Assembly (NCBI GenBank): GCA_964016885.1 | Contig: OZ024744.1 | Coordinates: forward strand, 57,226,001 to 57,290,000 | Direction: 5' to 3' | From: Eledone cirrhosa | Taxonomy: Eukaryota | DNA length: 64,000 bases | Shown: in pieces, positions 22,141 through 31,385 of the stretch | Layout: the number at the start of each line of letters is the position of its first letter | Position numbering within the stretch: position 1 is the first letter of the stretch | The notes under the pieces: generated by a model | What the model was told of the DNA's origin: nothing | What the model saw: only the letters and a program-made list of their open reading frames with translations | The model's database searches: none | Position numbers and translations under genes: made by a program

Positions 22141-22956
22141 ATATAGGAAAATGTTCAAGACCCCGACGGCAGAGCTCAAAATGTTTCCAGAAATAGCCGT
22201 CGAAACGGCTTGAGCTCTGCCGTCGGGCTCTTGAACATTTTCTTATTACCCACTCTACTACCTTAAGTATTGAGTACTCTGGTGCGTTATGGTCCACCTG
22301 GTTCCTTACCACACTTCCTTCGTTATATACACACACACACACACACACACACACATATATATATATATATATATATATATATATATATATATATATATAT
22401 ATATATATATATATATATATATATATATATATATTGTTATATTTGGGGAGGGTCATATTTGCGTAATATTGCCAGAATTAATAACAGAACACACTCACTG
22501 TTTGGTTGGTTTTCGCTTCTCGCTGTCTTTTATATATATATATCTGCGATCTAACTTACTCGGTCCTCAATGTTGCCATTGACTGACCGGCGGTCAAAAA
22601 TAATACAGATACAATATAGACACAAACACATACATATAGTTTACATAATTTACATAAATCTTTCGTTGCACATCTGCAACATCGTCAGTGGTGTTATATT
22701 CATTGTTCCTCCTGTTGTGTTGTATGTCTACGCCATTTTTTTTGTTCAGTCTGTCTATATATTTATTTATTTATTTGCTTGTTTGTTTATCTTATTTTAT
22801 TTTGTCTTCTTTGCGCATGCGTTTGCGTGTGTGTATAGTGTTATGTGTGATGTGTGACTAGTGTGTATAGTGTTGTGTCTGCTGGGTGACTAGTGTGTGT
22901 TTATGTGCTTGTGTATGTATTTATTTATCTTATTTTATTTTATTTTATTTACTTAT

Positions 22957-25900
22957 TTATACTTCTCTTAGGTCAGTGTTGTTTGTTTGGGTGTTGTTGT
23001 TGTTCCACTCATTCTTTCTGTTTAGCTTTGGTCTTCTAATTTCTATTTCACTGGCCTCTCTGATTTGCCTATCTGCTGGGTCATTCCTATGTTTAGATAT
23101 TATTCTAATTTCTATGTTGTCTATGTTACCGTCATGTTGTTGTCTAGCATGTTCGTATAGTACTGACCCGTTTTTTCGTCCTTTTAGTTCCCCCCAGTGT
23201 TGGTCTATCCTTTCACCTATGCTACGAGCTGTCTCACCTATGTATGTTGTTGTCATGTTTCTGCAAGTACCCTCTGTACATCTTATGCTATAGACTACGT
23301 TTCTAGTTTTACAGTTTATCCGGGGGTTCACCTTACATATGATACATTTCCTATTGGTACAGTGGGTTTTCTTAAAAGGGTAGGTTTTGCTGATCAGGGA
23401 TTTTATGGTGGTTCCTGGCTTTTCTACCACCTTTATTTTTAAGTGGGTCTTTCTCAGGGCCTTTCTACACTGGTTAGCTAATTTCCCTCCAGGGGTGGCA
23501 TCCACAAACATGACACTCTGATATCTCTGGTTGTCGTACCATGATGTGGCCTTCCCTATCTTATGTCTAGCCCTATCTAAGCTATTCCATGATTTGCTCC
23601 TGTATAGTGGGCAAATTCCTTTCATGTCCAGTTCTATGAGGGTCTTATACTTTTCCATGGCTCCTTCGTATACTCTGACTCTGTCTCTTTGGTTGTAGCC
23701 AGAGAACTGCATGCGGTTAATGAAGTGTTGGATGTGTCCTTCCATTTCTGTTGGGTCGCACATGCTGGACACATTCTTCATCACTCGTACCAAATCTGTG
23801 ATCAGAATATTAAACTTAGCACTACTGGACATTGCTGAGTTTTTGAGTATCAGGTATTTGGAGGCCATGGGTTTAGCATAGTGTGAGTGGAGAATTTGGG
23901 CTCTCTCGTCTATAGTGTTAATCCAGAGTTCTGTGTCTAATACAGGTAGTCTATTGTTAGGGTGTTTGGAAGGGAAGTCTATAGTTACAGTTATACTCTG
24001 GTGTATGGAATTAGCTATCTGCTGGATGCTTTCCATCGTGCTACGTTCTAAATTAAACTTGTTAGTGCTCTCTAGTGGGGGTGTTCTTATAACTATATTG
24101 ATATCGTCTACATAACGAGAGTACATGATGAGGTCTATGGAGCTTTCATTAAGGAGATCTTTAAGTCTCCTTTCCCACCATACCATGAAAAGGTTGGCAA
24201 CATCACCAGCTATGCTGACGCCGATGGCTGCTCCCTCATTTTGGGTGTAGATTTTCTCATTGAACTTAAATATGTGGCCCTTTAGGGTAGTTTTGATACT
24301 AGCCCCTATTGCATGTGCGACCATTTTTCTTACCTGATCAGTGTTTTGGGGGGTCCGTATAGCTTTGGTCCACCCAATCCACCTTCCTATGGGAGTCTTT
24401 TTAGCCATTGAGGTTATGGTGGGGGGTCTACCTCTTATTGGTCTACTAGGGCAGAAACATCTAAGGTCATGGCTGTCTAGGTAGTCAGTGTCGTAGGTAA
24501 GTCTAAGTAGGAGGCTCAGTTCGTCTGTGTCGACGTCGCAGAACTCCACCTCACTCTCAATGATCATCTCCACACATCTTTTCACAGCAAAATCAATGTT
24601 AATGGATGGGTACAGTGACACCACATCCATGCTGCCTATTATGCAGTTGGATAGGCTCCTGTTTTTGTTGCACTCACTGATTCTGCTGAGGAGGTCCTCT
24701 GTACTTTCACATACATCTGGGGACATCTTGATTATGGGGCGTATAACCATTGAGAGGAAGTAGGAGATCCTGTAGTTGCTAGCTATATTAGCTCCGCATA
24801 CGGGTCTTGTTGGTGGTCCTGTTGTCGGGTCGTCGACTGTCTTGTGGTCTTTGCGGAGCCCATACAAGGGTGGTATGCCATTGTTAGACGCCTGGAAGTT
24901 GTTGGCAGTGCGTCTGCTTGGCTTTAGGATGTCAGTCCACATCATCATGTGAGCGTTGAGGATTTTTTCTCTCCCATCGTGTGTTAGTTGTGCAACTTCG
25001 CTCGTGTTGGTGATGTGGGGTTGCATTGCCTCGATGTAGTTCGGCATGCTATCTATTGACATCCTACCAGACTTATCTGTGGGTAGACACACTACCTCAC
25101 CATCCCTTGTGCGCTGCTTGAGGCTAACCAAGCCTTCTACAGGTTTTATCCCAAGTTGTTGGGCCTCTGGTCTGCTCTGTCTCATAGTGTACCTGTCTAC
25201 TACTTGTCTAATCTTATTTCTAGCTATGGTGAACTGTGCCTCCGTCTCGTCATCTATTTGCTGTGGTATGCAAACTCTTTTATTAAAGGGTAACCTCGTA
25301 GGATAGATATTACCCATCTTATATGTTTTGTCAGCTGGGTTGAAAAATAGTTTCTCTAAGGGGTTGTCGTTATTTCTATCGTCATAGTTGTGTGTGTTGC
25401 TATTATTGTTATCATGGTGGTTGTTGTTGTTTCTATCATTAGCATTAATATTATTATTATTGTTATGATTGCTAGATGTATTGTTGTTTACTTCATCGTT
25501 ATTGTTGTTGTTGTTACTGCTATTTCTACCATTGTGGTTGTTATTATTATTATGTTTCTTGTTTTTGTTGATGTTGCTACATGTACTATTTCCATTATTA
25601 CCACTGTGGTTATTGTTGTTGTTGTTGTTCGTATTGTTACCGTTATTACTACTGTGGTCACTGTTGCTGTGTCTGTGGTTAACGTTTCTATTATTATTAT
25701 TATTGTGGTTGTTGTTGTTCTGTCTATCGCTAGTATTATTGCCATTATCACTATTTCTCACTTTCCTGCCATTGTTATGGTTATGGCTGTTATTTCTATA
25801 CCCAGAGTTATTGTTTATATTACTACTACCGTTATTATTGTTGTTGTTGTTTACCTTTGCATTCCAACGTATTTTTGTGAAACACTTTTCCAGCTTCGTT

Positions 25901-30916: not shown

Positions 30917-30960
30917 CACCACTGACGATGTTGCAGATGTGCAACGAAAGATTTATGTAA
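30917..30960 (+). ncRNA. Hammerhead-like motif in the PLE pseudo-LTR (minus-strand copies at ~22650-22693 and ~26786-26829)
   Basis: CTGACGA-T-GTTGCA(GATG)TGCAAC-GAAA. Core and stem II are clear, but stem I is only ~2 bp in this family member. Confidence 0.6.
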
Positions 30961-31385
30961 ATTATGTAAACTATATGTATGTGTTTGTGTCTATATTGTA
31001 TCTGTATTATTTTTGACCGCCGGTCAGTCAATGGCAACATTGAGGACCGAGTAAGTTAGATCGCAGATATATATATATAAAAGACAGCGAGAAGCGAAAA
31101 CCAACCAAACAGTGAGTGTGTTCTGTTATTAATTCTGGCAATATTACGCAAATATGACCCTCCCCAAATATAACAATATCTGTTTCGACACACGATTTCA
31201 TATAAAAAACCTCGCAAAACTAATTCATCGCCGCTATATATATATATATATATATATATATATATATAAATTGAAACAAAATGAAAACGAAATTTCATTT
31301 CTCACTCTTAGTATGGCTGCTCAGCCGTTAATTTTCATGAGGAAAGTATATACTTTCGAACGTTCAACTATCTGGCAGATGGGTA

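Follow-up and report, generated by a model that had tools for sequence, protein, structure and literature searches.

The two head-to-head element copies analyzed here form an ordinary inverted insertion from a young, high-copy family of Penelope-like retrotransposons (Penelope-like elements, PLEs). It probably formed in a single event, in which a (TA)n tract was cut, the two DNA ends primed reverse transcription at different fixed sites on the RNA, and the resulting arms were joined head-to-head. The pair lies in a window of 64,000 nucleotides of the Eledone cirrhosa genome (assembly GCA_964016885.1, contig OZ024744.1, positions 57,226,001 to 57,290,000 of the forward strand), and window coordinates refer to this whole stretch. 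The family is of value for its thousands of young insertions, the near-strict pairing of a short with a tailed end, and arms that share a source; the origin of tandem and inverted PLE structures is stated as open in the available text of PMC8557442 and PMC11167929.

Positions on the element were counted from the A of the ATG (u1, window position 26592, minus strand). Self-alignment of the window revealed a 4136-bp unit present as an inverted pair. The short-ended arm (22431 to 27076, minus strand, 4646 bp) reads pseudo-LTR (pLTR)-ORF-pLTR, from u-483 to u26 (codon 9) of the next unit; its 5′ pLTR occupies 26567 to 27076 (minus strand, u-483 to u26), and its 3′ pLTR (22431 to 22940, minus strand) ends at u26, the short priming site. 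The tailed arm (27076 to 31237, plus strand) starts at u59 (codon 20) and ends at u84 of the next unit, a length of 4162 bp (4136 + 26), and it carries a 58-nt tail (31180 to 31237, plus strand, u27 to u84) located between both priming sites. The two arms meet head-to-head at 27076 with a 1-nt overlap, and their outer ends abut (TA)n targets on the left (22355 to 22434) and on the right (31235 to 31268). Thirty-two nucleotides (u27 to u58) separate the end of the minus arm from the start of the plus arm. Self-alignment and junction mapping thus confirmed the geometry that an earlier sequence-only reading had described, including the stop of the minus arm at codon 9, the start of the plus arm 32 nt further along at codon 20, its extent of one unit plus 26 nt, a repeated 25-mer starting at 27076 and at 31212, and the (TA)n at both outer ends. 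Immediately to the right of the insertion, we also observed a 358-bp direct duplication that is 99.7% identical (31315 to 31672 and 31787 to 32144).

Across the shared ORF, the arms differ by 11 substitutions, comprising 7 missense, 3 synonymous, and 1 nonsense change. The figure of about 8 amino-acid differences given before agrees with the 7 missense plus 1 nonsense changes, but the stop in the plus arm had been missed: the ORF copy of that arm is without its first 19 codons and carries a TAG at 30090 to 30092. A 29-mer across the junction occurs once in the genome, and this, together with the 11 differences, argues against an assembly mirror. A mirror, or two independent insertions into one (TA)n tract, is scarcely credible as the origin of the pair. 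The family does reuse (TA)n tracts, and no reads span the locus (no public contig across the inverted structure was found in four contig runs). Against both stand the lack of (TA)n at the junction, the asymmetric arm ends, the short-plus-tailed rule that holds across loci (see below), and the variants themselves, since the two arms have in common 9 variants that are absent from every other sampled locus and yet differ at 11 sites.

The minus arm retains an intact ORF of 1211 aa (22957 to 26592, minus strand) with an N-terminal region, an Asn-rich insert, a reverse transcriptase (RT), a linker, and a C-terminal endonuclease. The Asn-rich low-complexity insert lies upstream of the RT at about aa 248 to 410 (25363 to 25851, minus strand, approximate boundaries). 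The RT carries DKS and YVDD, a CX4CxxC linker (CTNRKCIIC) precedes the endonuclease, and the latter is of the GIY-YIG type with CCHH. With the C-terminal 797 aa as the query, RVT_1 was matched at E=1.7e-4, below the Pfam cut-off; the whole ORF had no match in Pfam or PDB, and a profile search returned two bacterial RTs only. GIY-YIG is matched by 2 of 21 aligned relatives, and its Y, C, Y, and G are invariant in the alignment, as are the D and K of DKS; inspection of the alignment also showed two Cys within the VVY..YIG core and EHARQQH. The DKG-like and CCHH motifs were compared with the description in the available text of PMC8557442. Pseudo-LTRs, partial tandems, an inverted 5′-truncated copy, and a tail are all present, and the endonuclease is C-terminal, not N-terminal as the criterion for Naiad/Chlamys has it. 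Judged by these motifs, the element is a canonical C-terminal EN+ PLE. It appears Neptune-like by its CX2-5CxxC linker and (TA)n target, a linker that is reported in Nematis and Naiad too (PMC8557442, in the text available). The nearest named relative is a hypothetical protein of Octopus vulgaris (68% identity), and none of the relatives returned is a named reference PLE protein.

The family is large and young, with thousands of copies. The first 24 nt of the ORF have 4753 exact matches in the genome. Variants found in at least three sampled loci comprise 36 synonymous versus 19 nonsynonymous changes, and private variants 171 versus 393. An older diverged subfamily (L031, L064, L090, L111, and L160) has the u26 end too, paired with a tailed end near u67 to u71 where resolvable. 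Older related PLE relics are also present in the window (12244 to 13421, 18292 to 19023, 32275 to 32351, and 33155 to 33180), and two of them end at u26 beside (TA)n. Elsewhere, the window holds a (TGG/TGT)-rich tandem repeat of 57/114 bp that extends over more than 6 kb (57723 to 64000), with putative long open frames rich in Pro/Thr/Asn on its minus strand. Another repeat is present in two copies with 87% identity (36222 to 38872 and 49565 to 52157) and has a 456-aa open frame that, by inspection, resembles the C terminus of a non-LTR retrotransposon. Degenerate LINE-like frames were seen by inspection at 7000 to 10000 and 56267 to 57080.

Both outer ends of the window pair are those of the family. 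Across the genome, the u26 end is shared by 2214 copies and the u84 end by 1633, in each case running into TATATA. In 180 fetched stretches, for which anchors were chosen for u26/u84 while partner ends were unselected, all 202 exact ends into (TA)n fell at u19 to u26 or u69 to u85, and none at the equally TA-like u47 to u51 or u136 to u141. Since the outer ends are fixed family-wide, they hold no locus-specific information, and the proximity of inner start and outer end at the window locus comes down to one free number, the start of the plus arm at u59.

Head-to-head pairs were surveyed on a single chromosome, C1, over about 150 Mb of its length. The first 100 matches of four patterns were clustered, and 160 of the 165 planned stretches were fetched, in two sets. 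Set 1 yielded 81 junctions with a gap of at most 60 nt, the window included, of which 64 were classifiable at both ends and 17 were left out; set 2 yielded 23 junctions with a gap of at most 90 nt, 19 classifiable and 4 left out. A short end (u19 to u26) was paired with a tailed end (u67 to u85) at 63 of 64 junctions in set 1 and at 19 of 19 in set 2, giving 82 of 83 in total. Six long loci resolved later, three of them unclassified in set 1, are all short plus tailed as well. Two loci, L011 and L007, are tailed plus tailed, each with duplicated flanks that suggest later rearrangement, and L107, from the older subfamily, combines two short ends at a distance of 1.5 kb; neither L007 nor L107 is part of the 82/83 count. 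L010 and L011 (C1:36.03-36.15 Mb) share a duplicated junction and a common flank in copies about 100 kb apart, suggesting rearrangement or misassembly between copies, and at L007 (C1:21.33 Mb) the inverted repeat extends about 400 bp across the ends into the flanks. For many copies, no partner could be detected.

Inverted, truncated PLE copies whose tail sits at one end only have been described before (PMC3846280 and PMC8557442, in the text available). Strict pairing counts, arm haplotypes, or PLE twin priming were not found in the openly accessible literature, and the available portions of PMC9977147, PMC13282606, and 10.64898/2026.07.22.740005 contained no pairing data that we could find.

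The arms of a pair also resemble one another more than they resemble arms elsewhere. In 38 overlapping arm pairs (one locus counted twice), we counted 142 differences over 31,207 sites versus 441 expected from other-locus arms, and 11 of these pairs are identical; at polymorphic sites only, under slightly different definitions, there are 29 differences versus 252 for other-locus arms. This shared haplotype and the 82/83 pairing support the earlier proposal of one event in which a (TA)n site was cut and each of its DNA ends was primed. Gene conversion between the arms after insertion could mimic a common source. No sibling locus carrying the shared variants of the window arms together was found: the shared u2154 allele occurs at 2 other loci, which have only that allele in common. 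Nor was any locus found with the allele combination of the plus arm, whose stop allele is present at 3 other loci and whose u2977 allele is present at 1 other, unlinked. Thus, either the source is absent from the assembly or the arms have exchanged sequence. Private changes are more numerous in the plus arm (9 versus 1 to 3); this was considered as proof of different templates and is not relied on (P of 0.02 to 0.07, depending on the count).

The positions at which the arms begin were then compared in the pooled set of 81 pairs, obtained after removal of one tailed-plus-tailed and one diverged pair. Inner starts occur at scattered positions throughout the unit. In 62 of the 81 pairs, the arms overlap by more than 30 nt, an outcome that classic twin priming, with its separate stretches of a short RNA, cannot yield. 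Inner starts coincided to within 5 nt in 9 of the 81 pairs, where permutation gave 0.65, and set 2 alone gave 2 of 19 versus 0.16. Tailed arms stopped within u36 to u65 in 9 of 81 pairs, comprising the window arm and 8 tail-only arms. Tail-only arms down to about 14 nt exist in the family. Stops at u16 to u25, just beyond the short site, numbered 7 versus 1.4 per 10-nt bin (P of about 0.01, corrected for 17 bins). Such stops of the short form near the partner's end need no multimer. Among 63 junctions, 35 have 1 to 6 nt of microhomology, 7 are blunt, and 21 have inserts. The farther reach of the short arm was tried as support for a trailing RT and rejected, as the count of 46 versus 25 falls to 27 versus 25 without the tail-only arms. 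Eight inner starts lie in u-420 to u-381 (window about 26974 to 27013), which may weakly mark a transcription start, and the stops of long arms form an apparent cluster at u245 to u441.

These data bear on the template that the sequence-only reading had deduced, namely, a multimeric or circular RNA of about 8.8 kb whose non-overlapping segments were copied in the manner of L1 twin priming. In its linear version, L1-type twin priming would act on a single read-through RNA that spans two units or more (8840 nt); the downstream RT would copy one full unit and stop 32 nt before the upstream primer. The plus arm does stop in the u27 to u84 zone, as do the 8 short tailed arms, and multimeric templates are real in the family, as shown by multi-unit arms and by arms from different units at C1:181.30 Mb (see below). 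However, a full-unit arm beginning just past its partner's end was seen in 1 of 81 pairs, that of the window locus, so the expected recurrence of an inner start a small gap beyond the outer end largely failed to appear, apart from the short form described above. Furthermore, 4 of 5 tailed arms longer than 4 kb ran through u27 to u84 without stopping, as did five further long tailed arms (three of their loci chosen for holding the ORF start), and no locus with the plus arm's allele combination was found as a source unit. With overlap prevailing in the survey, the non-overlapping geometry of L1 does not describe the family, although the tail-only forms are compatible with it. An RNA of 8840 nt is required only if the arms are forbidden to overlap; otherwise, a 4704-nt pLTR-ORF-pLTR-tail RNA covers both arms, and the longer template is no longer implied. 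We regard twin priming on a read-through RNA as unlikely at the window locus.

Arms of more than one unit exist in the family, measuring 5.6 to 12.9 kb, so multi-unit templates or iterative copying exist, as already assumed in the available text of PMC11167929. Within one arm, the tandem units hardly differ from each other (e.g., 1 difference in 4119 sites and 2 in 4110). At C1:181302800-181312500 (L145+L146), the tailed arm consists of three clonal 3991-bp units, all with a 139-bp UTR deletion whose junction occurs at three genome sites only, those same tandem units; the short partner arm is intact. The arms of this locus thus copied different RNA segments and derive from different units or RNAs. 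At C3:90463500-90475100 (L147+L148), a private allele is found in 2 of the 3 units of one arm.

A circular monomer RNA, formed by hammerhead cleavage and ligation and subjected to rolling reverse transcription from both DNA ends, was proposed as an idea in PMC4209133 (in the text available) and would account for the near-identity of tandem units. The strongest hint for such re-copying of a monomer is the clonal 139-bp deletion, which is confined to the three tandem units of a single arm. A minimal hammerhead-like motif (core CUGAnGA, a 6-bp helix II, and GAAA), retrieved by a motif search and with cleavage only predicted, is located at u-231 of each pLTR (26791 to 26824 and 22655 to 22688 on the minus strand; 30922 to 30955 on the plus strand); an Rfam scan of 22000 to 31500 gave no hammerhead, only spurious sub-cut-off miRNA/scaRNA matches. 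Against the circle, the partner arm at C1:181.30 Mb is without the deletion, and the nested private alleles at C3:90.47 Mb fit inherited tandems or DNA-level duplication better than one circle. Moreover, only 2 of 162 inner starts lie around the predicted cut (u-220 to u-181), and in the available text of PMC11167929, the anole PLE could do without its ribozyme in vitro, with no reads ending at the cut site. We regard a circular template as improbable and do not favour it.

Could one arm be a copy of the other? In the fold-back or self-priming explanation, a single cDNA or antisense RNA snaps back and copies itself into the inverted arm; self-priming on an antisense template was proposed from junction palindromes of rotifer PLEs (PMC3846280, in the text available). 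Near-palindromic junctions in 9 of 81 pairs and arms of one haplotype agree with it. However, a copy made from the tailed cDNA can be no longer than its template, whereas in 46 of 81 pairs it is the short arm that extends farther 5′; a copy made from the short cDNA would have no tail; and the short arm of the window has u-483 to u58, which is missing from the inner end of the tailed arm. These objections concern the cDNA version, not the antisense version. We consider self-copying highly improbable.

The reading that we prefer is a single event in which both DNA ends act as primers. It is supported by the short-plus-tailed pairing, the shared haplotype, and the equal inner starts, and it agrees with the two start sites and the extension of both strands seen in vitro for the anole PLE (see below). 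In this scheme, the enzyme of the element would cut a (TA)n repeat on both strands, one DNA end priming reverse transcription at +26 and the other at +67 to +85. Both RTs, presumably two active sites of a dimer, would copy 5′-ward and stop at variable points, and the two 5′-truncated cDNAs would be end-joined head-to-head through 1 to 6 nt of microhomology or small inserts. A pLTR-ORF-pLTR-tail transcript of 4.7 kb would be a sufficient template, as either one RNA copied twice or two sibling RNAs of one source locus. We lean slightly toward one RNA, on which the tail-primed RT would stall at, or displace, the other primer; the stalls at the short site and the equal 5′ ends are hints that a single RNA can serve both RTs. 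To our knowledge, PLEs lack RNase H, and its absence would allow both RTs on one RNA.

More tentatively, we suggest that the reaction might be asymmetric, with an RT-endonuclease dimer directing one DNA end to +26 and the other to the tail site. A single RNA, left undegraded, would then be copied twice, and the trailing RT would stall at or displace the leading cDNA. If true, such a rule would explain the one-sided tail, the head-to-head inversions, the tail-only arms, and the palindromic junctions, and it would need neither antisense templates nor circles for these PLE structures. The pairing rule gives direct predictions for the existing in vitro PLE system.

Several known systems share parts of this design, and we compare them here as far as the available text of each source describes them. 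In the hammerhead circular-RNA PLE/retrozyme model (PMC4209133), a minimal hammerhead-like motif and tandems of more than one unit are found as here, whereas the nested tandem alleles argue against a single rolling pass. In twin and dual priming of L1, as defined in PMC2837659, both target strands likewise prime cDNA, and the product is head-to-head with junction microhomology. Unlike L1, the present family has no poly(A), both of its primers act at fixed sites instead of one at a random internal site, its arms mostly overlap where L1 arms flank a deletion, and inversion is the usual outcome, not a variant. Canonical C-terminal EN+ PLEs with inverted pLTRs (Adineta Pen2a, PMC3846280; general scheme in PMC8557442) resemble it in the pLTR-ORF-pLTR structure with an adjacent inverted 5′-truncated copy, the one-end tail, the Asn-rich ORF insert, and the microsatellite target. 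Here, the tail is 58 nt versus 30 to 40 and the inverted arm is nearly full length; in the text available, these two sources describe the tail as optional or as frequently present on one side, and they do not count pairs.

The closest parallel is offered by Poseidon of Anolis carolinensis (PAc; PMC11167929), which in vitro cleaves the two target strands and extends each of them. Its RT begins at two internal sites that flank the tail, and the protein is predicted to form a dimer. The start site showed no difference between the strands there, so strict pairing is not predicted by that activity alone. PAc differs in the position of its sites (+111-118 and a neighbour, versus +26 and +84 here), and the present element has its hammerhead-like motif 230 nt upstream of the ATG, a CX4CxxC linker, and short TA microhomology at the ends. 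Both elements have an AT-rich target and two RT starts, here deduced from the copy ends, just inside the ORF that bound the tail; the anole element has a hammerhead in the pLTR, where the present one has a candidate hammerhead-like motif. By analogy, the u26 and u84 ends would be the counterparts of the anole element's tail and its two internal start sites for RT.
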